This document shows positions 1,811-24,634 of a stretch of 64,000 nt of DNA, one piece after another. This DNA is from an uncultured Clostridia bacterium. GTDB lineage: Bacteria; Aerophobota; Aerophobia; Aerophobales; AE-B3A. Position 1 is the first letter of the stretch, and every line of letters begins with the position of its first letter. Location: contig CAZIXA010000008.1 in NCBI GenBank assembly GCA_964543295.1, positions 4,764-68,763 of the forward strand, written 5' to 3'. The translations under genes were made by a program, and so were the position numbers. Under the pieces are notes generated by a model. It saw nothing but the letters and a program-made list of their open reading frames with translations. It did no database searches and was not told the origin of the DNA.

Positions 1811-2080
1811 TCATCTAATGAATTTGTAGATCGTCTCCATTAGTTCTCCAATGATGGGACCGTCTCCGTTGGATTTGATGGCATCAGTTACACAGCTTTC
1901 AATATGGCGCTTCATAACGCGGAGACCTACCTGATCCAGAGCCCTCTGAGCTGCGGTAACCTGATTGATTATGTCAATGCAGTACCTTTCTTTTTCCACC
2001 ATCCTCTGGATTCCTCTAATCTGTCCCTCAATTTTTCTCAATCGAGATAGAACATTCTTTTTTGTTTCCTCGTTAATCAT
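1811..2080 (-). CDS. csoR: CsoR/RcnR-family metal-sensing transcriptional repressor
   Basis: 89 aa; conserved C..H..C metal-ligand pattern (YCIDIINQ...HIESC); immediately upstream of copA on same strand; SD aagggggtg. Confidence 0.7.
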   Translation of the reverse strand: MINEETKKNVLSRLRKIEGQIRGIQRMVEKERYCIDIINQVTAAQRALDQVGLRVMKRHIESCVTDAIKSNGDGPIIGELMETIYKFIR

Positions 2081-2127
2081 AGGGTTACACCCCCTTCATC
2101 TTAATCTCCTTAATTTGGTTTATACTG

Positions 2128-2144
2128 TTACCCTGTAATGGTAT
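2128..2144. promoter_or_regulatory. candidate CsoR operator (TACC-N7-GGTA pseudo-palindrome) in csoR-copA promoter region
   Basis: ttaccctgtaatggtat inverted repeat ~60 bp upstream of csoR start; CsoR operators are GC-tract pseudo-palindromes. Confidence 0.25.
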
Positions 2145-2420
2145 ATGTATTATAATCATATTTTATGAAGTGTCAAGGGAGGTCTTACTCAGAATGCAAA
2201 TGAAAGATACTTGTTACATCATGAGGATGGGAGAATGCGATTATTTGACATAACACTAAATCATTGCTATGCTCTGCCTCTCTTGTAGAAAGAAAGACCA
2301 AAGATAAGGATAGAGATGATCCAGGACTGGTTAAGAGAGGGAAAAATCTTTTGATTAGTTGACCTTGGGGTCGATTCTTATTCCTGTAGCGACTCTTAGC
2401 TATATTGTTAGTGGCTCGGG

Positions 2421-2451
2421 GGGACAGACGATGTTGATAACAATTTTAAAT
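2421..2451. repeat. R-family repeat copy R1 (ggctcggggggacagacgatgttgataacaa)
   Basis: shares ..ggacgatgttgataacaa core with R2; upstream of MFS gene. Confidence 0.5.
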
Positions 2452-2608
2452 ATTCGCTTAAGACTTTCCAAAAATCAGGAATCAAAACACCTGCCCTTAT
2501 TTGGCCAGAGCGTCCGACTTTTTTGTTCCTTAGCTGGAGGGGTAATAATTTACAGAAGCGGCCATTTTTATATAATCTGTAAAAAACTATTTTTGGAGCA
2601 CTGCGGAA

Positions 2609-3790
2609 ATGGGGCAGTTCATAAAGATACACACCTTGGTGGTTTTATCATTCACTCATTTTGTCAATGATTTTTACTCTCTTTTGTTACCCATTTTTAT
2701 TCCTGTTCTGGTTCTCCAGCTTGGCATAGACTACTTTGAGGCTGGTATTTTGGTCGCCTCCGTGGCTATAATTGGTGCCATACTGCAGTCTCCAGTTGGA
2801 TACTGGGCGGATCGCTGCCGGAAAAGGGTTACTTTTATAGCTACGGGTTTTATCTTTTATGCTCTAGGAGCGATTATCCTTGGTTTAAGTAACGGATTCA
2901 GCCTTCTTCTCCTTTCCTCTTTTTTTATAGGACTTGCCACAACGACTTATCACCCTCAGAGCACCAATCTCATCACCAAAGAGTTTGCCAGGAGAGGTCA
3001 GGCTCTGGGTATTCATGGAGTGGGGGGTCAGCTTGGCAGATTCATCTCTCCTATTCTTATTGCCTGGCTTATCTCCAGATTGAAGTGGAGATTGGCAGCA
3101 ATAGTTCTTATCCTACCCGCATTTGCAGCTCTTATTTTGTGTTGGTCAACTCTGAGAGAACCCACGCAAAGAGGAGAAAAAGGTCTTGCTGGAACAATAA
3201 CCCTACCCATCTTTCTTTTAGTCTTAATTCTTGGCTTGAGGGGGGCGGTATTCCAGGGAATTATCTCTTTCTTACCTTCTTTTCTTATGGAGAAAGGTTC
3301 GCCTATTAGCATAGCAGGACTGCTTACAGGGATAATGCTGGGAATAGGTTTGATTGCTCAGCCTCTGGGTGGCATCATGGGGGATAGAGTTTCCAAAGGA
3401 AAGATAATCTTTTTAAGTCTTGTGGGGCTAACTATATTTTTTTTCTTTTTCCACTTTACAGTGGCATCAGTCGCAGGAGAATCCGCATTGAATTATGAAA
3501 TACTCATTGCTCTTCTTGTTGGAATAGGTTTTTGTATTTTTGTCACCTTTCCTGTGGGGCTTGCCCTCTCTGCTGAACTAACCCGCGGTGAAAGAGTGGG
3601 AACTTCAGTAGGACTTGTTTTTGGTGGGGGAATGGTATTATCAGCTCTTACCTTACCCGGGGTCGGTTACCTTATCGACAATTATGGATTTCAGACTGGA
3701 TTTACCCTTCTGGGGATTTTAGCGGCAGTAGCGACGCTGATTAGCGGGCTCTATATTAGGTTGGACTTGAAATGGCGTCAACAAGGGTAA
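2609..3790 (+). CDS. MFS-family transporter
   Basis: 393 aa, ~12 predicted TM helices, MFS-like loop motif GYWADRCRKR between TM2/3. Confidence 0.7.
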   Translation: MGQFIKIHTLVVLSFTHFVNDFYSLLLPIFIPVLVLQLGIDYFEAGILVASVAIIGAILQSPVGYWADRCRKRVTFIATGFIFYALGAIILGLSNGFSLLLLSSFFIGLATTTYHPQSTNLITKEFARRGQALGIHGVGGQLGRFISPILIAWLISRLKWRLAAIVLILPAFAALILCWSTLREPTQRGEKGLAGTITLPIFLLVLILGLRGAVFQGIISFLPSFLMEKGSPISIAGLLTGIMLGIGLIAQPLGGIMGDRVSKGKIIFLSLVGLTIFFFFFHFTVASVAGESALNYEILIALLVGIGFCIFVTFPVGLALSAELTRGERVGTSVGLVFGGGMVLSALTLPGVGYLIDNYGFQTGFTLLGILAAVATLISGLYIRLDLKWRQQG

Positions 3791-11198: not shown

Positions 11199-11474
11199 AT
11201 GAACAAAGCAGAATTAGTAGAGGAAGTAGCAGGAAAAGTTGGACTGACAAAGAAGGAAACTAACAATGTAGTGGACGCTATAACGTCAGCCATTACTGAT
11301 TCTCTGGTAAGAAACGAAAAAGTAATATTGGTTGGACTCGGCACATTTGAAGTGAGGAGGCGAAAAACTCGGACAGGAGTTAATCCTCAAACTAGACAAA
11401 GGTTAGTTATTCCTGCGATGAATGTGGCTAGATTCAAAGCGGGAAAAGGATTAAGAGAAAGGGTGGGTAGGTAA
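11199..11474 (+). CDS. hup: HU-family nucleoid-associated DNA-binding protein
   Basis: 91 aa; MNKAELV...GFGTFEV..R..R.GRNP.T signature; SD aacaGGAGGtatt. Confidence 0.85.
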   Translation: MNKAELVEEVAGKVGLTKKETNNVVDAITSAITDSLVRNEKVILVGLGTFEVRRRKTRTGVNPQTRQRLVIPAMNVARFKAGKGLRERVGR

Positions 11475-11515: not shown

Positions 11516-11836
11516 ATGGATATCGATAGACGTAAACTATTAAGAACACTAATTACAGAGGATTTATGGAAAAGGCTATCTCCAGAAGAAGTTAGGCTAT
11601 ATCTTCTTCTTGTAATTTCTATTGATGAGACAAAGGAAATAGGGGAACTAAGAAAACGGGATATTGAGAAATGTCTGGGATATAGTCTAACTGTTGGGCA
11701 ATTAGAAAAAATTACCCATACTTTCCGAGAACTTAACTTAGCTGAGATAGAATATTCTAAGGAGAAATCAGAGGTAAAATTTACACTCGTGGGAAAGGAA
11801 TCCTCAGACGAGAAAAACTATTCAGGTCCCAGCTAA
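11516..11836 (+). CDS. hypothetical small protein (possible wHTH); 3' end encoded out-of-frame by HU-derived DNA
   Basis: 106-aa ORF between intact hup and HU 3' copy 2. Confidence 0.35.
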   Translation: MDIDRRKLLRTLITEDLWKRLSPEEVRLYLLLVISIDETKEIGELRKRDIEKCLGYSLTVGQLEKITHTFRELNLAEIEYSKEKSEVKFTLVGKESSDEKNYSGPS

Positions 11837-11888
11837 AAAGGTTGCTAAGTTTAGACCGGGAAAGGGATTGAGGGAAGCGGTAAGGTAA
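11797..11888 (+). pseudogene. displaced HU 3'-end copy 2 (encodes ..NPQTRKTIQVPAKKVAKFRPGKGLREAVR* in HU frame)
   Basis: ~90 nt homologous to hup 3' end (11385-11474) with stop codon; followed by same tail motif as copy 3. Confidence 0.7.
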
Positions 11889-11950
11889 AAATACCAACGT
11901 TTTTTGTCCATTGAGGATTTTGAGCTTTGAAATCTGCACCTAGTCTATAA

Positions 11951-12001
11951 CAAAAGACGCAAAATTAGCCAAAATAAGAGGCTTTAATCTTTTCAATGAA
12001 G
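11951..12001 (+). repeat. tail motif copy a (caaaagacgcaaaattagccaaaataagaggctttaatcttttcaatgaag)
   Basis: ~50-bp motif repeated at 12378-12422 and 13843-13892. Confidence 0.7.
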
Positions 12002-12095
12002 GAAACCTATTGTTGATAAATCTTGATATTATACAGTTCTGTATAAGATGTTAGGCAGTAAAATAAATTAAACCGCTTGCATACAGGGGGTTATT

Positions 12096-12389
12096 ATGAA
12101 TATTCTAGGGTGGGTAGTTTGGGCTGTCGCAATGTTCATATTTATTGTTCATATTTTCCTTTTTTTCCATTCTGACCCAGGCGTTAGTCGTCTTGCAAAA
12201 CGATTTAGTTTTTTAATTGCAATAGGGCTAGCCATTACAGCATTTACAAAATTATCGAAATTCCATCTCATCTGGTGGATACCTGTTGCATATCTTTTTA
12301 ATCTTTGGGCTTTTTCGGCAAGAGTTCAGCGAGACGCTAAAAAATTTATTGAAAAGCTTAAGGGAAGAAAACAGGAGACGCCAAATTAG
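12096..12389 (+). CDS. small two-TM membrane protein
   Basis: 97 aa, two hydrophobic helices, basic C-terminus; SD acaGGGGGttatt. Confidence 0.4.
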   Translation: MNILGWVVWAVAMFIFIVHIFLFFHSDPGVSRLAKRFSFLIAIGLAITAFTKLSKFHLIWWIPVAYLFNLWAFSARVQRDAKKFIEKLKGRKQETPN

Positions 12390-12422
12390 CCAAAATAAGA
12401 GGCTTTAATCTTTTCAATGAAG
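12378..12422 (+). repeat. tail motif copy b (solo, without HU 3' fragment)
   Basis: gacgccaaattagccaaaataagaggctttaatcttttcaatgaa, 43/45 identical to copy a; overlaps stop of ORF 12096-12389. Confidence 0.7.
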
Positions 12423-12611
12423 AAAAACTTGCATTGACAGATTTCGACGTTTTCTCTTGAGCTTCTCTCGCTTCTAGGAGCACTCATTCATAACGAAGTC
12501 AGGACGGAGAGGAGACAGCAGCCCCAGGCTGAGAAGATGAATGAACATACCTGGCAGAGAAGTACCTCGGACACGAACAATCAAGTGCCATGCTAATCGT
12601 GGTTATGGAAA

Positions 12612-13659: not shown

Positions 13660-13775
13660 ACAAAAGAAAGATAAGAACCGGAAGGAATCCTCAGACACGA
13701 CAAACTACTCAGATCCCAGCAAAAAAAGTCCCCAAATTTAGACCGGGAAAGAGATTGAGGGAGAAGGTGAAGTAA
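13660..13775 (+). pseudogene. displaced HU 3'-end copy 3 (..KIRTGRNPQTRQTTQIPAKKVPKFRPGKRLREKVK*)
   Basis: ~115 nt homologous to hup 3' end incl. stop; followed by tail motif aaaataccaacgtttttt...gacgcaaaatt..aataagagg.tttaatcttttca.tgaa. Confidence 0.7.
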
Positions 13776-13842
13776 AAAATACCAACGTTTTTTATCCACT
13801 TTACATTTGTGGTCTTTGAAGCATGCTTATAGCAAAAGACGC

Positions 13843-13892
13843 AAAATTGGTCATAATAAGAGGTTTTAATCTTTTCAGTGAAAAAAAAAATA
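13843..13892 (+). repeat. tail motif copy c
   Basis: caaaagacgcaaaattggtcataataagaggttttaatcttttcagtgaa. Confidence 0.7.
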
Positions 13893-14189
13893 TCATTGAT
13901 AAGTTTTGACCTCTTCCTTTGGCTTCTCGTTGCTCTAAAAGTACTACTTTATAATGGGACTGAGAGCTATGAACAATCTATCTGGTCAGCTGGGTAATTT
14001 GTCTACTCCCCAAGAGCTCTTCAATACCATGCAATATTTTCACAAGTCCACTTTCTGGAGTTTAGTAGCAATTTTGGGAGGATTCTACTGTACTCTCGGA
14101 CACCATATAATGGAGAAAAAGCAAGGTATAAAACTATTACTCAACCTCAAAATCCTTGAAATAGAGTGTAGAATATTTGGAGGAATTGG

Positions 14190-14921
14190 TTGAAGGAAAA
14201 ATACAATAAAAGATATGAGGAACAAGTGAGAAGAAAGTTTTGCTCATGGCTTAAAAAACATCATTCTCGTTGGTTCATCTCAAAAAAAAATCCTATAAAA
14301 GTCGCTATACCTACAAAGGAAATTTCGTTTAGGATGGATCGACTTTCTCCTGACATAGACGTGTTGGCTTATTGTAAAGCTTCTGACAAGTTAATAAGCT
14401 ATGAGGTGAAGGGACCTACTCGTAAATACAAAGACCATTACATCATTGAAAGAAATGGGAAGATGGTAGGTTCTCAGGCTTACAAAGGTGACCTCGGAAA
14501 GCTCCAAAAAGGAAATCAAGAAAGATACAAAATAGAAAAGATTAGTCGTCCGCATTATCCGGATTTTGGAATTACTTATAAAGGAATAGGAGAGGCTCTT
14601 TTCAATCTTAGGTATGTTGATCAAAGTTTTTTAGTTCTACCTGAGGTTGTCTACCTCTCTCATTTCTCCCACCCGGTATTTCTTAATATTTTATTAGATA
14701 GACTCCTTCCTTTGGGTCTAATCAAATATGATTATTACTTGCATGTGAAAGACAACAAATTAGATATTAAGGAATTTGAGGTAATTCGTAAAGCTAAAGA
14801 CTCATCTTTGTGGAAGCGTTACAACGAGTCGCTCAAGAGAGAAAGCGATATAATTGAATTTGAGTATGAGGGTGAGGTACGGAGATATCTAAAAAACAAG
14901 CTGGAAAAAGGTGAACTTTAG
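14190..14921 (+). CDS. PD-(D/E)xK-type nuclease-like protein
   Basis: 243 aa; SPDIDVLAY...ISYEVKG (D..D...E.K) near N-terminus. Confidence 0.4.
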   Translation: MKEKYNKRYEEQVRRKFCSWLKKHHSRWFISKKNPIKVAIPTKEISFRMDRLSPDIDVLAYCKASDKLISYEVKGPTRKYKDHYIIERNGKMVGSQAYKGDLGKLQKGNQERYKIEKISRPHYPDFGITYKGIGEALFNLRYVDQSFLVLPEVVYLSHFSHPVFLNILLDRLLPLGLIKYDYYLHVKDNKLDIKEFEVIRKAKDSSLWKRYNESLKRESDIIEFEYEGEVRRYLKNKLEKGEL

Positions 14922-15054
14922 TCTGAGGTCTTTTGGCCAACATGAAGTTTCGTTCTTCTTGAATAAGGAAAGTGAACAAAACTTTCAAAGAAGGAGAATA
15001 AGCAGAACAGGGTAAATTAGGTGAAAATAAGAGATCTTAAAAGGCGGTAAAAGA

Positions 15055-15870
15055 ATGGGAGAAAACTTAGAGGAAGTGAAAATCTTGGAAATAAGTGAGG
15101 GGGAGCTGGAAAGTTTCGTAAAATTGTCTCTTGATAATATCGAAACTGGCTTAACATTAATAGACACACAGGTTAATACATACAGAGGCCCTTTAGATAT
15201 TTTAGCGGTAGATAGCGAAGGATGCTTGGTGGTTATAGAGCTAAAGGTAAAGAAGAACGACGATATGCTGTTCCAAGCTGTGGATTATTGCGATTGGGTT
15301 CAAGGGAATATAGATTCAGTAAGCAGGATGTATAGGAATATTCATCCTAAGGTGGAAGTAAACTACAAGAAGCCTCCTAGAATCATGTTAATTGCTCCCA
15401 GTTTTTCTTCTTCACTTAAGCGAAGAGCGAAGTATTTAGACATTAGTATTGATCTGTATATCTACCGGCTCATTGAGATCGGTGGTAAACGGGGCTTGCT
15501 ATTCGAACAGGTTAATATTCCTCCTCGAAGGTTTCCTTCTCCTTCTCCAAAAACGATTCCAGATCTTACGAATTATCCTCAAAATGTTGAATACAGAAAT
15601 TTAGTTGGGAAATTAGATGAAGCCATAAGACAAATTGGAGGTGATATAGAACCTTATCCCACAACTCAATATATAGGTTACAAAATTAAGGGATCCTACA
15701 TTGCTAGTATTCATCCTAGAAAGACCGCCTGCCCTTATGTAGATATTCTTGGTGAGGAAGGATGGGAATCACTCTCATTAGAGAGCCAAGATGATATTGA
15801 GAAAATTCTTAATTTGGTCAATAAGGCATATAGACTAAAAAAGGGAATGGTAGATACAAATAAGGTTTAA
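15055..15870 (+). CDS. RecB-family/NucS-like PD-(D/E)xK nuclease domain protein
   Basis: 271 aa; GPLDILAVDSEGCLVVIELKVKK (D, D, ExK) followed by QAVDY (QxxxY motif) as in RecB/Cas4/NucS/Shedu-type nuclease folds; extra C-terminal domain of unknown function. Confidence 0.55.
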   Translation: MGENLEEVKILEISEGELESFVKLSLDNIETGLTLIDTQVNTYRGPLDILAVDSEGCLVVIELKVKKNDDMLFQAVDYCDWVQGNIDSVSRMYRNIHPKVEVNYKKPPRIMLIAPSFSSSLKRRAKYLDISIDLYIYRLIEIGGKRGLLFEQVNIPPRRFPSPSPKTIPDLTNYPQNVEYRNLVGKLDEAIRQIGGDIEPYPTTQYIGYKIKGSYIASIHPRKTACPYVDILGEEGWESLSLESQDDIEKILNLVNKAYRLKKGMVDTNKV

Positions 15871-15955
15871 TTTCTAAGATAGATATGTTTAGGTTAGTAA
15901 GGTATAGAATTATCACTCAACCTCTGAACTCTTGAATAAGAAATAGGAGTAAAAA

Positions 15956-16672
15956 ATGAATATGGATTATAAAGAACTTATAAAAGGGGCTCAATTATTT
16001 GAAAATGATCCAGTGGCTCATTTTTATGACGAATATATGGAGGAGAAGAACTATCAAGAATGGGAAGATCCTCATAGTCTCTCTGATAATGAAGTGAGAA
16101 AACTTTTTGAGTTTATTATAAGTTGGGATCCTCATTTTGGGCAAGAGCGTGATAGAATTGCTGAATTTAGGCACGCATACCAAAATATTTACCCTCTTCT
16201 CAGAAAACTCGAGAGAGAAACAATCTACAATATAGCTTTTGAGGAGAGGGTGAGTAAAGGCAGCTTAATAACACATTCACAAGCCATTTTTCTTATTTTT
16301 GAGGAAATAGCACATTGCTTTAGAAGGTATGAATCAACAGATACTTCAAAAATCATTCATACACTTAATCCCCACCTATTTGTTATGTGGGATAACGCAA
16401 TTTGCTACCATATATTAGGTATTGAGTTGATAAAAAGGGCTTCGGGACATGATTACGCCTATAGATTTATGCCTTTAATGCAAAAAACTGTTAAAAAGAT
16501 TATAAGAAGTTATACGGAGAAGCATTGCTGTAATCAGGAAGAAGCAGTAAAGAGAATATCTGAATGTGGAAACAATAAGACTTTAGCTAAGTTGATAGAT
16601 GAGTATAATTGGGTTTATAAAAATAACCCGGAGAAATTGAAAAGAGCCCACTTCGGCAAAGAGAAAAACTGA
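15956..16672 (+). CDS. hypothetical protein, partner of downstream SIR2-like gene (18-bp gap)
   Basis: 238 aa, helical, no motif I recognise. Confidence 0.5.
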   Translation: MNMDYKELIKGAQLFENDPVAHFYDEYMEEKNYQEWEDPHSLSDNEVRKLFEFIISWDPHFGQERDRIAEFRHAYQNIYPLLRKLERETIYNIAFEERVSKGSLITHSQAIFLIFEEIAHCFRRYESTDTSKIIHTLNPHLFVMWDNAICYHILGIELIKRASGHDYAYRFMPLMQKTVKKIIRSYTEKHCCNQEEAVKRISECGNNKTLAKLIDEYNWVYKNNPEKLKRAHFGKEKN

Positions 16673-16689
16673 AACAAGAAACTACGAAC

Positions 16690-17718
16690 ATGTCTGAAGA
16701 AAAGACTGTATACTTCTTAGGTGCGGGGGCCTCAAATGCTTCTGATTTTACCCTCCCAATAACGGATGGGTTTTTTCGGAAAGACGATCTTAGTCTGGAA
16801 AATTTTTCTGAGCTTCGCAAATTCATTGAGAGCACCTTTCATGGGGTTCTTTCCGAAAACCTCAATTTGGAGGATGTGATTAGTCACCTGGAGCTAAGTG
16901 TAGACAGATTTGGCTCGTTCGGGAAACGTCCTGATGCCTATCTTTATGATGCCAGAGAGCAGTTCAACCAATACGTTAGGATGCGATTGGATTATGAGTC
17001 TGTGGAGGGTAGACTCTGGTGTCCAAAATTCAAAGAGATTTTCCAAAGTCTGAACCCGAACGATACTATTATCACTCTAAATTATGATCTCATCACGGAA
17101 AATACGCTAAATGCTATTTCACACGAAAAAGGGGTGAAGGAAAATCATACGTTGTACACAAAAATGGTTCAACTGCTTAGTCTGGACATCTACTGCAGTG
17201 GCATATTAGGAATCGACGTTCCCGAAAGGAAATTGGAATCTGGTTGGTATCTGAAACTGCATGGTTCAACTAATTGGTATTATTGTTCCAACCCGCACTG
17301 TCTGGGTCACCAGATTATGAACGTACTCGCCATGCCTGTGGGCGGTCCTCCCCGTAATTGCAATTCTTGCGGTTCTCCTCTTGAGATGGCGATTGTCCCT
17401 CCCACGATGAATAAGGCCTTCGGAAAGTATCCCAAATTGGGAATCATATGGAGTCTAGCTCGCCAGGAAATTGCTTCATCTACCTCCATTGTATTCATAG
17501 GTGTTTCCTTTAGGCCTTCAGATTACTATCTGAGTTGGCTAGTCAAATCATCATTCTTAGGGGCAAAGAGTAAAGACAAATCAGTCGTAGTCGTTGACAA
17601 GTGTGAATCAGTCGCCCACCGAATAGCCAAGATGATTGGTGTGAAACCAGTTTATTGCGATAATATTGACTCATATATCTCGTCAAGAAAGGAAAATAAA
17701 AAGGAGATGAACGGCTGA
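16690..17718 (+). CDS. SIR2-like (SIR2_2 family) NAD-binding domain protein with inserted zinc ribbon
   Basis: YFLGAGAS (GAGxS), ITLNYD (catalytic Asn motif), LKLHGS (catalytic His), CxxHC...CNSC zinc module, IVFIGVSF; same order/spacing as ThsA/DSR-type defensive SIR2 domains. Confidence 0.6.
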   Translation: MSEEKTVYFLGAGASNASDFTLPITDGFFRKDDLSLENFSELRKFIESTFHGVLSENLNLEDVISHLELSVDRFGSFGKRPDAYLYDAREQFNQYVRMRLDYESVEGRLWCPKFKEIFQSLNPNDTIITLNYDLITENTLNAISHEKGVKENHTLYTKMVQLLSLDIYCSGILGIDVPERKLESGWYLKLHGSTNWYYCSNPHCLGHQIMNVLAMPVGGPPRNCNSCGSPLEMAIVPPTMNKAFGKYPKLGIIWSLARQEIASSTSIVFIGVSFRPSDYYLSWLVKSSFLGAKSKDKSVVVVDKCESVAHRIAKMIGVKPVYCDNIDSYISSRKENKKEMNG

Positions 17719-17885
17719 AAGCTAACGACTAAAGGTAAGAGGAGAGAATTATCTGCTAAAGAGAGGCGTAATAGACTAATTATAAAGCTCTGGTTCGAGG
17801 CGCAATTGGAATCGGGCTAATTAAGATTTTATTCTGATTAACAAGAAAAAACACGCACATAGAGGCTCATAGAGCCACTTTCTTA

Positions 17886-17988
17886 AGGAAAGGTAACCTG
17901 TAACCTGGGTAAATTTAAGCTCCTCTATCAAGAGATTTTTTTTAAGCCAGTTGCGAGAATAGAGGGATTTTTAGGAAAGGGAGAGGAG
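17886..17988 (+). promoter_or_regulatory. conserved ~105-nt leader, copy 1 (upstream of 84-aa ORF)
   Basis: aligns with 18321-18422: aagg.aacct.ta..ggtaaa.ttaa...tatcaagaga.ttt...aagc.agttg.g.ata.gggat..taggaaagggag + SD. Confidence 0.45.
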
Positions 17989-18243: not shown

Positions 18244-18320
18244 GACAAGAGGCATGAATATGAACAACTTCATCGACAAGAAAAACCGCCTTCACAGAAG
18301 ATTATATACGAAGTTTTCTC

Positions 18321-18422
18321 AGGGTAAGGCAACCTATATGGCCTAGGTAAAATTAAAGTGTTTATATCAAGAGAATTTTATCAAGCTAGTTGTGGTATAG
18401 GGGGATCATAGGTAAAGGAGGT
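18321..18422 (+). promoter_or_regulatory. conserved ~105-nt leader, copy 2 (upstream of 194-aa ORF)
   Basis: see copy 1. Confidence 0.45.
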
Positions 18423-19605: not shown

Positions 19606-20553
19606 ATGAAATTACTGACAGGTAAAATTATTCCTATTCTGATACTCGTATTGGTTCTTTCTTGCCTCTCAGCTTATGCCAATGTTCAAATCATGAGCTA
19701 CAACGTCAAAGATTTCTGGCTGAGGTTTGATGGAGAATCTGGCAGCATGACAGATGAAGGCGCTGCATTAAACGAAAGAGATCTTGAAAGGCTCGAGGTC
19801 ATCGCTGGTGTTATTAATGAAAGGAAACCGGATGTTATCGGAATATTGGAATGTGCAAGCCTGGCTGAGCTGATATTCTTCAATGAGCGATTTTTAAAGG
19901 GGGAATACAGATGTTGGAGTTTTCGAGCTTACGACTCAAGAACTTTTGGGATTCCGCTTGGACTCATGGTAAAAAAGGATGTGCAAGTTAAATCAGTCGA
20001 TCTCGTTGAGCCCAGATCCTTTAGTTCTAGAGGAATTATAATTGCGGATATTGTAAAAGGTGATTACGAATTTACGCTATTCCTCGTTCATCTCAAATCC
20101 AAAATAGAACAAAAGTTAGGTGAATCAGCTCTTAAAAGAGATAGACAAGGAAATCGTCTTCGTGAAATAATAAAGGGAAAACTGGAAGAGAATCCTAATG
20201 CCAACATTATCATCTGTGGTGATTTCAATGATTCTCGTGGTCGGGATGATCAAGAAAAGGCTGCGGATGTGGAGGACTTAATAGGCAAAGTGGTGAAACC
20301 AATTATGCTAGGAGACAGGACACAAGTAGCAATTTACAGTTCCACCTTAGAGCATAAGGATCAAGACATAAATGGCCAATTATGGACGGAAAAAAGTAAG
20401 GGACATGCTCCAATTCAATTTGATTATTTCTTTCTCACGCAAGGTGCGAATGATGAATTCGTTAATCTAGATCATGTTTATCCAGAAGAATTTCAAAATA
20501 TACTTAGGGCGTCTGACCATATTCCCATTGTTTTGGATCTTCGGGATGAATAA
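19606..20553 (+). CDS. secreted endonuclease/exonuclease/phosphatase (EEP) family protein
   Basis: 315 aa; signal peptide; EEP motifs IMSYNVKDF, ILEC, ICGDFND, SDHIPIVLDL. Confidence 0.6.
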   Translation: MKLLTGKIIPILILVLVLSCLSAYANVQIMSYNVKDFWLRFDGESGSMTDEGAALNERDLERLEVIAGVINERKPDVIGILECASLAELIFFNERFLKGEYRCWSFRAYDSRTFGIPLGLMVKKDVQVKSVDLVEPRSFSSRGIIIADIVKGDYEFTLFLVHLKSKIEQKLGESALKRDRQGNRLREIIKGKLEENPNANIIICGDFNDSRGRDDQEKAADVEDLIGKVVKPIMLGDRTQVAIYSSTLEHKDQDINGQLWTEKSKGHAPIQFDYFFLTQGANDEFVNLDHVYPEEFQNILRASDHIPIVLDLRDE

Positions 20554-20741: not shown

Positions 20742-21305
20742 TTGAAACTCCGGCTATATAGAATTTCCACAAGAGAGGTCCAGGCTGTGATAAATCCCGC
20801 CGAAGACATAGTGAATCTTTGGTTGCAAGAGTGCCACAATCACTTTACGATGACCAACATAGTAATAAGAAAGAAACCGAGAATTATCAATGGGAAGAAG
20901 ATCCATGGAGGTCGAGGGAAGGAAGTCGACATTGTTTCGACGGATGGGAGCAAATTCTTTTGGGTAGAGGTTGGAGTTTCGGCTCGGCCATATTCTCCTC
21001 TCAAGGCTGTGAGAGTGGATAAGTGCGTTTCAGACGCAAAAGAAAAGTTCACTGAAGAAAAAGAGATGGGTCTTAAGGAACGGTTCAACAAAAGGGATTT
21101 TAAAAAGTGGTATGTATACTCTCCAAAACTGTTTTCGAAGTCTACGGATGAGGAACAGCTCTATCGGTCTCGTCTCAAACAATCAGGAATCAATCCGATA
21201 AGCTTCACGGATGTCCTGTCGGAACTTCGAGAAAAATTGAACTACATGGGTTATGATGCGACACGAAACTATTTGTTTCTCTTGAAAGAGTTTCGATATT
21301 TCTAG
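20742..21305 (+). CDS. hypothetical protein
   Basis: 187-aa ORF, no clear motif. Confidence 0.35.
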   Translation: MKLRLYRISTREVQAVINPAEDIVNLWLQECHNHFTMTNIVIRKKPRIINGKKIHGGRGKEVDIVSTDGSKFFWVEVGVSARPYSPLKAVRVDKCVSDAKEKFTEEKEMGLKERFNKRDFKKWYVYSPKLFSKSTDEEQLYRSRLKQSGINPISFTDVLSELREKLNYMGYDATRNYLFLLKEFRYF

Positions 21306-21517: not shown

Positions 21518-24500
21518 CTAACCGTTGCTGCTCAATGAGGCAACAGCAGGGGTAATTCCGGACCTGCGGTAGACCTCATCAATCTTTTCTTGAAGTTCAA
21601 TCGTGAGCTGAATCGCTTTTTCCACCTTCATATAATGGTCAATCTCATCCAGACAAAGCTTCCGGCCTCTTCTATCCTTCAGGTATTTCTCCATTACCTG
21701 ATAAGCTCCGATTCGGTATTCCCACACTTCTTTCGAGATACCCTCAAAACACTGACCTTTGTTGATATAGACTCTTTGGCTCCCTTCATCATATTGCACC
21801 TTTTCCATTTTATTGGAGCCACTTACTGGGTAGCCAATCTCGGTTTGGGAAAGAGAAAAGTGTTTAAATAAATGAAGTTCAACAAGCTCTTTACCAAGAT
21901 TGCTCAAAGTCCTGAAAACTTCATAATCTTTCGGTAAGGGAATCCTAGGAAAGTCTATTTTGAGGAATTCCTGGTAACGCTTTCGGTAGGTGGAGGAGTA
22001 AAGCACGGCATAGATGTAATAAAAAATCTTTTCTGGAGCCGGTTCCATTTCATGAGATTCTTTTACCGCCTGCAAGAATTTATCGGTGAAATTTGGAATT
22101 TTCGGTTCTCCAGACAATTCCTGGGAAAGAGCCAGATCTTCACGTCCATGCTGGTAAAGGTAAAGAGGGAAGCAGTAACAATTATCCCTTGAGGAGATAA
22201 GAGTTTTGTCTGTTATGTGGGAGGTAACCAGAATGTGCCGCCAAATAGGATCTCTTAGCCTCTTCGTAAGATTTATTGCTAAATTACTCCTTTCTATCAT
22301 ATGTCTCATCAGTTTAAACCTATCTCTTTCAACAAGTGCCCAATGATAACAGATGTATCGCCAATCAAAGGGCCTGTAGTCATAGAGATAGATTAAATCC
22401 TCCCATTTTTTACCTTTGACTTTTTCCCGTATCTTCGAAACCATCCAATCCTTGGTGTCCTTCAATTTCAAGTCCATCTTGATTAAATCACTCGTCAGTG
22501 ACCCTGTGAATACCTTCATTCTTTGTACTATCTCATCGCTTGTAAATCCTACTACAAGATGATCTCGTGCGGTGGTTACACCGAAAGACCACTGTCTGAA
22601 GATCTCCGTTATCTTCCAGAATTTCTCATACTCCTCTTGCAGAGCAAAATCTTTAGGAACAAAGAAGTAGTAAGGAGCGACAGGCTTAAGTTCTTGCCAC
22701 TTAGTTGTCTCGGTGTCGTTTTCCGAGAGGTATCCGTATTTTTTACTTCTCAGACCCCAAAGGTCCGCATAGTAGACTTTCTTTTCTTTCTCTGGTCTCT
22801 CAAGTTTTACATAGAGGGCAATAGTAACCCCCTGCTGGATGTCAAATACATTCTCGTCTTTGCCGCCTTCGGGGGTCAGCTCACTTATTCTTGAGGAACC
22901 ATGCAGATTTAAAAGATAAATCTCATTAAAGGTCTCTAAAAGTTTACTCCGCATCCCCCGATGAATTACCCCTGAAAGATAGGAGTTATTGGTGATAAAC
23001 CCCAAGATTCCTTTACCAGCTTGCTCTATTTTCCATTGACCAAAGCGGATAAACTTTATGTAATCATCAGAAAGAGGCTGGATATTTCGCTCCTTCCTCA
23101 CGTCTTCCTTGTAAGTATCCATCAAGTCTTCAATGAAATCCGACTTGTTTTCTGAGCTCACTGAATAAGGAGGATTGCCCAAAACAACCAAAATGGGAAT
23201 TTCTTCCTTTATTTTTTTAGCTTCACGCCCTTCTTTTGTAAGGTCAATGAGGAAACTTATCTGTCTGGGTTCTTTCATCTCCAGAGTATTGGTGAGGTAA
23301 AACTTGAATCGTTCACCTTCCTTGAACCTATAACCCATCTCTTCCAAGACCATCGATACCTTGAAATGACCTACTGTATAGGGAGCCATAAGGATTTCAA
23401 AAGCATGAAAATGGGGCAAGATATGCTCTTCTATATAAGATTTAACAAGTCCTCCTTTATTTCTTTCTTCTAGCTCCCCCTGCACTTGCTTGATTGCCTG
23501 GACGAGAAAGGTCAAAGTGCCTGCTGCCGGATCAAGAAGGGTTACATCTCTGGTGGCAAGTCCTTCGACCTTTGAAAATTTTTGCTTTAAGAGTTTGTGA
23601 ATTGACCTCGTGATATAGGAAACCACTGGCAGAGGGGTATAATAAACTCCTAATCTTTGTCTTTCTTGAGGATTATAAGTAGCAAGGAAGGTTTCGTAAA
23701 AGTGAATTACCGGGTCCTCATCCCACCGAGTCGTCTTGAACTCCTTAAGAATTGAGGAAATATCGGCCTTCTCAAGCACTTGACTTATGTCATCAACAAT
23801 CCAGGATAAGGATTCTGGGAAATGTGGTCCAACAAAGGAATAAAAAATTTCCTTGAGTAAGGGTAAACTCTGAGGGATGGATTCCCAGGCAACTTCCCTT
23901 TTGAAGCCATTTTCAACCCTCATTCTGGCGGCAAAAAGTCCATAGCTCATAGTCTGGGCGTAAAGGTCTGCGAATCGCTCTTCACTCAAGGTCTCTATAA
24001 GTTCTTCTTGAAAGGCTTTGTAAAATCTCGTCACCTCTTCATTCTTACCTGAAAGCTCTTCCTGTAAAATATGTTCAAGAAATCGGGTTCTCTTGGCCAG
24101 TTCAATGGAAAGGTCAGAGGAGGTCTTTATCTCAGGTGCAGAAAAAGAGAAGAATTTTTCAAGAAGCTGGAAGAATAGATCTAACTTCTCAGGAAGGGGA
24201 GGATGCTTCAATCTCTGCAAAGTAAATTGCCGACCCACCTCCACCTGATCAATCAGACTGCCTTTCCGGTATAACCTGAACTCCAAGAAATTGGTCAAAA
24301 TGAGGTTAGGAAGTGAGCCCAGATACCTCCTGAGCTGCTCGGAGCCTTCAACTTCTCTGAGGCTGGCATCAGGTGGTTTTGCTTCAATGTATCCAACGAT
24401 TTCGCCATTTTTACCGATGCGAAAGTCAGGGATTCCTACTTCTGTTCTTCTAGGTAAAACAATAACGTTTGCCCTTGCTTGTATTTGAAAAAATCGGGAA

Positions 24501-24634
24501 AGTTCTTCAATGAATCCCTTAAGTGCAGGATAGAAGCTTTCTTCCCTGAAATTGCCACCTGTATAAATCTCATGGATTTCCCTAATGTAGCTGCTAAGAG
24601 TTTTTTCGAATTTGTCTCTTTGCCTTTTCTTCAT
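21518..24634 (-). CDS. MmeI-family Type IIL (IIG) single-chain restriction-modification enzyme
   Basis: 1038 aa; N-terminal PD-ExK (GIPDF...GYIEAKP), gamma-class N6-adenine MTase motif I LLDPAAGTLTFL and motif IV NPPY, C-terminal TRD-sized region. Confidence 0.7.
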   Translation of the reverse strand: MKKRQRDKFEKTLSSYIREIHEIYTGGNFREESFYPALKGFIEELSRFFQIQARANVIVLPRRTEVGIPDFRIGKNGEIVGYIEAKPPDASLREVEGSEQLRRYLGSLPNLILTNFLEFRLYRKGSLIDQVEVGRQFTLQRLKHPPLPEKLDLFFQLLEKFFSFSAPEIKTSSDLSIELAKRTRFLEHILQEELSGKNEEVTRFYKAFQEELIETLSEERFADLYAQTMSYGLFAARMRVENGFKREVAWESIPQSLPLLKEIFYSFVGPHFPESLSWIVDDISQVLEKADISSILKEFKTTRWDEDPVIHFYETFLATYNPQERQRLGVYYTPLPVVSYITRSIHKLLKQKFSKVEGLATRDVTLLDPAAGTLTFLVQAIKQVQGELEERNKGGLVKSYIEEHILPHFHAFEILMAPYTVGHFKVSMVLEEMGYRFKEGERFKFYLTNTLEMKEPRQISFLIDLTKEGREAKKIKEEIPILVVLGNPPYSVSSENKSDFIEDLMDTYKEDVRKERNIQPLSDDYIKFIRFGQWKIEQAGKGILGFITNNSYLSGVIHRGMRSKLLETFNEIYLLNLHGSSRISELTPEGGKDENVFDIQQGVTIALYVKLERPEKEKKVYYADLWGLRSKKYGYLSENDTETTKWQELKPVAPYYFFVPKDFALQEEYEKFWKITEIFRQWSFGVTTARDHLVVGFTSDEIVQRMKVFTGSLTSDLIKMDLKLKDTKDWMVSKIREKVKGKKWEDLIYLYDYRPFDWRYICYHWALVERDRFKLMRHMIERSNLAINLTKRLRDPIWRHILVTSHITDKTLISSRDNCYCFPLYLYQHGREDLALSQELSGEPKIPNFTDKFLQAVKESHEMEPAPEKIFYYIYAVLYSSTYRKRYQEFLKIDFPRIPLPKDYEVFRTLSNLGKELVELHLFKHFSLSQTEIGYPVSGSNKMEKVQYDEGSQRVYINKGQCFEGISKEVWEYRIGAYQVMEKYLKDRRGRKLCLDEIDHYMKVEKAIQLTIELQEKIDEVYRRSGITPAVASLSSNG

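Follow-up and report, generated by a model that had tools for sequence, protein, structure and literature searches.

The PDC systems were proposed from their embedding inside known defense systems ("guilt-by-embedding"; bioRxiv 10.1101/2024.01.29.577857). One of them, PDC-S11, was renamed Madara and is a modification-dependent restriction enzyme of Escherichia coli ECOR34, described as a NucS-like nuclease with an EVE-like domain; it restricts T4-like phages only when these carry modified cytosines, and its nuclease mutant D63A loses defense (bioRxiv 10.64898/2026.09.05.749240). Here, we compare such systems with two adjacent open reading frames (ORFs), A and B, in a 64,000-nucleotide (nt) stretch of DNA from an uncultured Clostridia bacterium (GenBank assembly GCA_964543295.1, contig CAZIXA010000008.1, positions 4,764 to 68,763), referred to below as the window. 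A first reading made from the letters of this stretch (the sequence-only reading) had proposed that A and B encode tandem, unrelated PD-(D/E)xK nucleases directly upstream of a SIR2 operon, here ORFs C and D. We consider it probable that A and B are two separate single-gene cassettes, each encoding a stand-alone predicted Mg2+-dependent DNA endonuclease, in a variable and horizontally shuffled island. The island runs from the 3' end of an HU gene to a type IIG restriction-modification gene (Table 1).

Both ORFs were found where they had been placed, and the motif strings that had been singled out, PDIDVLAY...SYEVKG in A and GPLDILAVDSEGCLVVIELKVKK...QAVDY in B, were confirmed in the translations and are the best-conserved parts of each family. 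ORF B is under purifying selection, with a ratio of nonsynonymous to synonymous substitution rates (dN/dS) of 0.23 relative to a 72%-identical homolog, and residues E19, D48, E62-L63-K64, Q74, and Y78 are invariant in its family (n = 34). Pfam NucS_C matches residues 15 to 69 with 30.4 bits, above the gathering score of 24. A profile of the family retrieved Pyrococcus abyssi NucS (2vld, 5.5e-10) and EndoMS (5gke, 2.8e-6) from the PDB, with D, ExK, and Q...Y aligned. The AlphaFold model of ORF B is confident (predicted local distance difference test [pLDDT] of 89.8), and Foldseek matched its N-terminal domain to the same NucS/EndoMS structures (2e-5, probability of 1.00), with weaker matches to Shedu SduA (4e-3), SfsA, and Card1. 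The rest of the protein had been described as a C-terminal extension of about 150 amino acids (aa) and of unknown function; it is shorter, ∼105 aa, and resembles DUF5655, YjbR, and DUF1801 domains. Foldseek searches with residues 168 to 271 returned 3dnx (4.6e-3, probability of 0.99), YjbR 2fki (0.99), DUF1801/YdhG 2oc6 and 9t2w (∼0.95), and 2i8d, all within a probability range of 0.89 to 0.99, and Pfam DUF5655 matched with 20.6 bits, just under its cutoff of 24. The term "double-wing" DNA-binding motif has been used for the YjbR fold.

The nearest PADLOC candidates for ORF B were PDC-S18, matched over both domains (3.6e-15), and PDC-S11, matched over the nuclease domain alone (5e-14). The best PDC-S18 model matched with 53.8 bits, pairing residues 42 to 221 with model positions 71 to 260 of 365. 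A Streptomyces plasmid protein named "DUF5655 domain-containing protein" is a bona fide PDC-S18 member (424 bits) with an above-threshold match to Pfam DUF5655 (28.9 bits). When this protein was compared with the ORF B family by hhalign, 172 columns covering both domains were aligned (probability of 98%, E value of 2.9e-13). As judged by these profile comparisons, ORF B is a predicted short, divergent relative of the PDC-S18 architecture. ORF B itself was absent from IMG/VR and had only distant relatives on large plasmids, so its identification as a phage or plasmid gene was ruled out.

ORF A presents a different case. Its start codon is credible since homologs align from residue 1 in the 21-sequence family alignment, and a dN/dS of 0.16 relative to an 88%-identical homolog indicates purifying selection. 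Residues S53-P54-D55-I56-D57-V58-L59, E72, K74, and P76 are invariant among the 21 sequences, and E10 is conserved in at least 90% of them, so that the best-conserved block reads E10...SPDIDVL...E72-x-K74. In a wider set that extends down to 22 to 30% identity, invariance persists for P54 and D57, and at least 90% of the sequences keep E10, D55, and K74. The family is sparse: there were 22 matches among 5.8 billion clustered proteins, 34 clusters among 1.84 billion cluster representatives in an exhaustive profile search, 11 loci in JGI metagenome contigs, and 1 locus in 185,579 species-representative genomes. No member was found in IMG/VR, the INPHARED phages, or the PLSDB plasmids, by which ORF A was ruled out as a phage or plasmid gene. 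Scans of 20 family members gave no match in Pfam, NCBIfam, PADLOC, or PHROGs, the exhaustive search of the 1.84 billion representatives recovered the ORF A family and no known family, and a second search with a widened profile added no new family. By these searches, ORF A belongs to a very rare orphan family. Hidden Markov model (HMM) searches had been put forward as a check on the sequence-only reading; they placed NucS_C on ORF B above its cutoff, found no match of DUF4263 to ORF B at E values up to 1, and assigned ORF A to no family.

The AF2 model of ORF A gives the conserved residues a structural setting. A helix at residues 7 to 24 contains E10 and is followed by short strands, a strand at 58 to 62 that starts from D57, a strand at 67 to 73 that carries E72, and then K74. 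A poorly conserved β-hairpin insertion of ∼50 residues (80 to 124) comes after the ExK strand, and the C-terminal part consists of a helix at 127 to 139 (YKGIGxALFNL), a strand at 145 to 151 (SFLVLP), a helix, a hairpin, and two C-terminal helices. In the model, Asp...ExK lies on two consecutive strands with Glu in the preceding helix, which is the PD-(D/E)xK motif pattern, and the order of elements is consistent with a canonical PD-(D/E)xK core (α-β-β-β...α-β) plus an insertion. A Foldseek search of predicted viral structures (BFVD) matched uncharacterized phage proteins (E values of 1e-4 and 3.6e-4), a phage "DNA repair protein" (5.5e-4), and an MmcB-like protein (2e-2); a restriction endonuclease and NERD-type proteins stood lower in the list. 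Scattered family members gave subthreshold matches to Card1_endonuc (0.059), NERD (0.014), PADLOC PD_DExK (0.0088), and a phrog "DNA repair protein" (0.11), which all point to the PD-(D/E)xK superfamily. The proposal that A and B are unrelated held at the sequence level: hhalign paired only a 23-residue motif stretch, with a nonsignificant probability of 0.3 to 1.3%. The same nonsignificant alignment sets D57 and E72-K74 of A opposite the catalytic D48 and E62-K64 of B. Together, motif and model make ORF A a probable PD-(D/E)xK nuclease. Of the two nucleases proposed, B is firmly backed by profile and fold matches and A by its motif only, with no significant HMM, profile, or PDB fold match for A.

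The relationship of A and B to each other and to the SIR2 pair was assessed by blastn of closely related metagenome contigs against the window, together with the junction sequences. Contigs L020 to L023 carry A and B without C and D, and past the point of divergence they encode a small ORF, a PLD-like gene, a UDG gene, and HU genes. L024 and L025 have B, C, and D with a RAMA/DUF4357 gene upstream, not A; the other contigs in Table 1 carry A or B only. The breakpoints fall in the two intergenic spacers, beside short shared sequences (...AGGAGAA... at 15001-15007 and ...CTTGAAATAGGAGTA at 15951). Synonymous divergence (dS) from L020 differs fivefold between the two genes (0.32 for A versus 0.07 for B). 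Among the more distant homologs, neither A (∼9 contexts) nor B (4 contexts) was ever accompanied by the other gene or by SIR2. We conclude that A, B, and C+D are three cassettes that can be exchanged separately; because such exchange takes place independently among close genomes, the genes do not form one obligate system.

The neighborhoods of homologs elsewhere are variable. Neighbors of A homologs include Mrr_cat; a Schlafen AlbA_2 gene with a type IIG-like gene fragment; GIY-YIG with a DNA methyltransferase; DUF2971; TIR with HEPN; the toxin-antitoxin pairs MazE-PIN and DUF433-DUF5615; and, on an element that bears a serine recombinase and TraG, a type III-like restriction-modification system accompanied by an SMC-like ATPase. 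In L039 (9709-18173), a distant member (28% identity), with overlapping start and stop codons, is flanked by a 101-aa ORF and a resolvase fragment; a methyltransferase, an SMC-like ATPase, and a type III Res-like gene follow downstream, and the element encodes a serine recombinase and TraG. B homologs adjoin AbiEii, toxin-antitoxin genes, and an integrase. By association only, these neighborhoods favor a role in defense or in the mobilome, and from them alone we infer an anti-phage or anti-mobile-element role for A and B.

Adjacency could also mean that A and B form one two-gene system, either two nuclease subunits or a toxin and its controlling partner, in which each gene needs the other. Both genes are intact and read in the same direction, not only in the window but also in another, diverged haplotype (L020 to L023 and L028), and in both cases in which close relatives have them apart, the remaining copy is damaged. 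The ORF A orthologs of L006 (3465-4192) and L007 (1264-1991), on contigs without B, have a 1-nt deletion corresponding to window position 14667, and in ORF B of L024 (6721-7536) and L025 (1064-1879), the TAT codon of the conserved Y78 is mutated to a stop (QAVD*CDW) next to intact C and D. The damaged solo copies could point to mutual dependence of A and B, which is kept as a minor rival that we judge quite unlikely. The deletion in L006 and L007 is within a C-rich run and could reflect misassembly, a recombination breakpoint (15001-15007) separates the two genes, and their synonymous divergence differs as described above. Moreover, intact A homologs (38 to 57% identity, ∼9 contexts) never have a B-like neighbor, and intact B homologs (72% identity in L008 and 30 to 45% elsewhere) never have an A-like neighbor. 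Extending the operon to all four genes, with the nucleases as effectors or sensors for an NAD-consuming SIR2 protein, agrees with the arrangement on one strand at gaps of 133, 85, and 17 nt, with the lack of a convincing terminator between the genes, and with the contiguity of B, C, and D in L024 and L025 too. The position directly upstream of the SIR2 genes that had been pointed out is correct as a position. The four-gene operon is highly improbable as a unit and largely refuted by the haplotypes: the L020 to L023 match ends before ORF C, C+D is found without A, B is a nonsense pseudogene beside intact C and D, and SIR2 does not neighbor any of the distant A or B homologs. Of the two options left by the sequence-only reading, partnership with SIR2 failed on these haplotypes and independent single-gene systems fit them. 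A promoter and terminator scan of the spacers, which had been suggested for defining the operon, was uninformative: neither spacer yielded a plus-strand site, and the total counts matched the shuffled expectation.

The reading of A and B as separate endonuclease cassettes also has to be weighed against other functions. A housekeeping DNA repair enzyme, either a NucS-like mismatch endonuclease or a Holliday junction resolvase, is suggested for B (or A) by the homology of the B nuclease domain to NucS/EndoMS and by the names "endonuclease NucS" or "Holliday junction resolvase-like" that relatives of B bear in some databases. This is the alternative that we find hardest to credit: ORF B is without the NucS N-terminal domain and scores 33.7 bits with NCBIfam equivalog NF003270 (cutoff of 216) and 24.8 bits with NF002876 (cutoff of 252), it is polymorphic in presence/absence and in pseudogene state between genomes that are nearly identical, toxin-antitoxin genes and integrases abound in its variable neighborhoods, and ORF A occurs in only 1 of 185,579 species-representative genomes. 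The motif residues of both genes are conserved in homologs, and neither gene shows housekeeping synteny, so the observations that had been named as refuting the sequence-only reading were not made. More serious, if still improbable, is the possibility that ORF A is not a nuclease. Its D...ExK pattern would then have a structural or ligand-binding role in some unrelated fold, or the protein would be a catalytically inactive DNA binder linked to the HU gene or to the maintenance of mobile elements. A homologs on L004, L006, L020, L031, and L038 have an HU gene within a few kilobases, which is directly upstream in L004 and L038; one distant member (P0085) has a subthreshold Resolvase match (E value of 0.067), and another lies between recombinase genes.

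Several further results weigh against our reading. In the databases searched, nothing tied ORF A significantly to any nuclease by sequence, profile, or solved structure: profile searches of the PDB gave nothing relevant, and the best Foldseek match in the PDB had an E value of 0.14, with a top match that is not a nuclease. The AF2 model is of moderate confidence (pLDDT of 74.5, predicted template modeling [pTM] score of 0.73), and its BFVD matches have template modeling (TM) scores of only 0.27 to 0.39 with high root mean square deviations. In the wider family set, E72 is replaced by Q in 3 of 20 sequences, and K74 is gone in one. The PDC-S18 score of ORF B is low (54 bits, where a true member reaches 424), the literature search yielded no experimental test of PDC-S18, and no activity, target, or phenotype is on record for the A or B family. 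On the other side, the invariant residues of ORF A are the exact catalytic set, in the correct order, on a predicted helix and two consecutive strands; all of its weak matches point to PD-(D/E)xK families; and even the nonsignificant hhalign comparison matches its motif residues to those of B. Because significant sequence and PDB fold matches are lacking and the fold matches are weak, the nuclease call for ORF A is probable, not proven.

Table 1. Positions of the two cassettes, related haplotypes, and surrounding island features in the window
Feature	Position(s)	Strand	Details
ORF A	14190..14921	+	243 aa; TTG start, GGAGG 6 nt upstream
ORF A putative catalytic residues	D55/D57, 14352-14360; E72-x-K74, 14403-14411	+	With E10; from homolog alignments
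Cassette A extent	14108..15007		Stretch common to L006, a contig with A but without B or the SIR2 pair
ORF B	15055..15870	+	271 aa; ATG start
ORF B N-terminal domain (aa 1-154)	15055..15516	+	NucS-type PD-(D/E)xK; D48, 15196-15198; E62-L-K64, 15238-15246; Q74, Y78
ORF B C-terminal domain (aa 168-271)	15556..15870	+	DUF5655/YjbR/DUF1801-like α+β; presumed DNA-binding or sensing module
Cassette B extent	15001..15951		Left breakpoint from L024/L025, right from L020-L023
ORF C + ORF D	15956..17718	+	Neighboring two-gene cassette; C, 238 aa, no family; D, 342 aa, SIR2-like
Match of L020-L023	13828..15951		93% nt identity; upstream leader + A + B, without C+D; diverges 5 nt before ORF C
Match of L024/L025	15001..17896		94% nt identity; B + C + D; RAMA/DUF4357 gene upstream
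Match of L006/L007	14108..15007		89% nt identity (L006, 88.6%); A only
Match of L008	15056..15844		80% nt identity; B only
46-nt leader repeat	14120..14165, 15896-15941	+	Upstream of A and of C; 2 exact sites versus 0.11 expected
Shorter TCTTGAATAAG motif	14957-14981, 15930-15954		Before B and before C
HU 3'-end remnants	11796..11888, 13683..13775		Last ∼30 codons (RNPQTR...FRPGK...*); tblastn E values of 1.6e-7 and 2e-9; degenerate
Element Y (∼80 nt)	11949-12026, 12370-12447, 13831-13908		2 further copies in L020
Element X (∼150 nt)	17806-17980, 18272-18419		4 further copies in L020
Type IIG restriction-modification gene	21518..24634	-	1,038 aa; PADLOC REase_MTase_IIG, 1e-246; closes island on right

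The cassettes lie in a low-GC stretch (36 to 42% versus 44 to 47% on the left). The island is bounded on the left by Trk transport genes and an intact HU gene (11199..11474), and beyond the type IIG gene on the right are regulatory and polysaccharide genes. That a type IIG enzyme closes the island supports a defense-island context. The two HU remnants resemble a scar left by site-specific insertions that repeatedly hit the 3' end of the HU gene; HU genes near A homologs were noted above for other contigs. Cassette breakpoints in related contigs fall at or beside the leader repeats. Elements X and Y sit just upstream of different small genes, both in the island and in the related contig, and could be portable promoters or leaders or recombination sites. 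They were also considered as attC sites of an integron-like array, and this was rejected: they did not fold consistently better than shuffled sequences, with z scores of +0.5, -1.4, +0.8, and -0.7 and a single value of -3.6; no R''/R' core sites were seen by eye; and no integrase gene was present among the window ORFs scanned. Known RNAs and tRNA integration targets were considered too and rejected, as neither Rfam families nor tRNAs were found in the window.

The SIR2 assignment of ORF D (16690-17718) comes from weak HMM matches (Pfam SIR2_2, E value of 0.0099, below the gathering score; PADLOC Aga_SIR2, 3.7e-6) and from GAGAS, NYD, and KLHGS motifs read from the sequence. PDB sequence searches with ORFs C and D returned nothing useful. 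The two genes stay together at a 17-nt spacing in L024 to L026. A 238-aa protein beside the A homolog of L034 (1222-1938) is weakly like ORF C (29% identity over 97 aa, E value of 1e-5) and is followed by a Schlafen AlbA_2 protein (2048-3262) in place of SIR2, with a type IIG-like gene fragment next in line; the effectors that partner ORF C-like proteins may differ.

Other features were recorded around the two genes. A 79-aa ORF (13954-14193), whose stop codon overlaps the ORF A start, was considered as a partner of A and rejected, as its last third is the noncoding leader repeat and it is absent upstream of A in L006; its dN/dS is ∼0.95 on only 9 substitutions, and it is probably not a gene. 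An endonuclease/exonuclease/phosphatase-family gene (19606-20553) lies 4.7 kb downstream of A, and genes of this family directly adjoin the A homologs of L027 (2886-3190, fragments only) and L033 (1-450); B, C, and D may have been inserted between the two. A 187-aa ORF (20742-21305), the exact sequence of which was not in the protein collection, had no family match except a subthreshold one to Hjc resolvase (E value of 0.098), and from its GKEVDIV...WVEVG pattern it could be a third, degenerate PD-(D/E)xK-like protein. In another lineage, ORF A is reduced to a 99-aa remnant (L037, 1632-1931), and in P0085 the N-terminal region with the Resolvase match precedes the A-like region. An intact ORF B allele (P0024) nearly identical to the stop-bearing copies of L024 and L025, which come from two metagenomes, is present in another sample.

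A working model for the two proteins can be outlined from their predicted domains. In ORF B, the C-terminal domain would bind or sense a DNA feature, and the nuclease domain would cut. Because ORF B has no paired methyltransferase, discrimination between self and nonself would depend on a feature of the foreign DNA. By analogy to Madara, a type IV-like enzyme that recognizes such a property is possible, though short of probable; an infection-triggered suicide nuclease seems to us rather unlikely. The suggestion that these nucleases are abortive infection effectors found no support, and the nearest tested relative, Madara, is a restriction enzyme (bioRxiv 10.64898/2026.09.05.749240). ORF A would act as a stand-alone endonuclease in which the insertion and the C-terminal module provide substrate recognition.

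A bolder proposal joins two claims. ORF A would found a new, extremely rare family of stand-alone restriction-like or defense nucleases with a PD-(D/E)xK core, a novel β-hairpin insertion, and a C-terminal module, and the island would consist of promoter-carrying cassettes swapped at short conserved leaders (the 46-nt repeat and the ...CTTGAAATAGGAG... junctions) downstream of HU, an integrase-free, integron-like shuffling of defense genes in uncultivated sediment bacteria. We hold this combination to be a speculative possibility, with the odds clearly against it. More plainly, ORF B is probably a new, divergent member of a known candidate family, and ORF A represents an uncharacterized, rare family that probably falls within a known superfamily. 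If ORF B is active, it would add a divergent branch to the NucS-domain defense nucleases, and its putative DUF5655/YjbR-like sensor, which differs from that of Madara, could recognize a different DNA feature. If ORF A is a nuclease, it would represent a new, very rare family without a database profile and a candidate for a new specificity or defense gene. As a natural experiment, the three recombinant haplotypes show that neighbors in a defense island need not cooperate, which calls for caution when multigene systems are inferred from adjacency. Current understanding is not overturned by these findings.

Compared with known systems, the nearest fold-level neighbor of ORF A, among predicted viral structures only, is the MmcB-like or phage "DNA repair protein" family of PD-(D/E)xK proteins. 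Like ORF A, these are small stand-alone proteins, and they match most of its chain (Foldseek probability of 0.87 to 1.00, E values of 1e-4 to 2e-2); unlike them, ORF A has the insertion after the ExK strand, and the two differ by the low TM-scores given above and by the lack of a sequence-level signal (phrog E value of 0.11, no Pfam match). Shedu (SduA) is, as predicted for ORF B, a stand-alone defense nuclease with a related PD-(D/E)xK core (Foldseek, 8ps5), but the core alone aligns, and the accessory domains differ. NucS/EndoMS has a homologous catalytic domain in which D, ExK, and QxxxY align with those of ORF B. In ORF B, in contrast, the domain order is reversed, with the nuclease domain starting from about residue 10, the N-terminal DNA-binding and dimerization domain is absent, and the gene is not vertically conserved; judged by its domains and scores, ORF B is not NucS proper.

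Madara and PDC-S18 come closer. Madara likewise joins an N-terminal NucS-like nuclease to a small C-terminal domain, a putative sensor in ORF B (the two are linker-joined in Madara), and both are single genes beside defense genes. The C-terminal fold of ORF B matches 3dnx, YjbR, DUF1801, and YdhG, not EVE/PUA, and PDC-S11 alignments stay within residues 14 to 101, ending at 82 to 101, that is, in the nuclease domain only. ORF B is not Madara. PDC-S18 models are longer (302 to 365 positions versus 271 aa), and ORF B is very divergent from them; the two share a NucS-like nuclease with DUF5655, an HMM match that spans both domains, and a single-gene organization in variable or mobile contexts.

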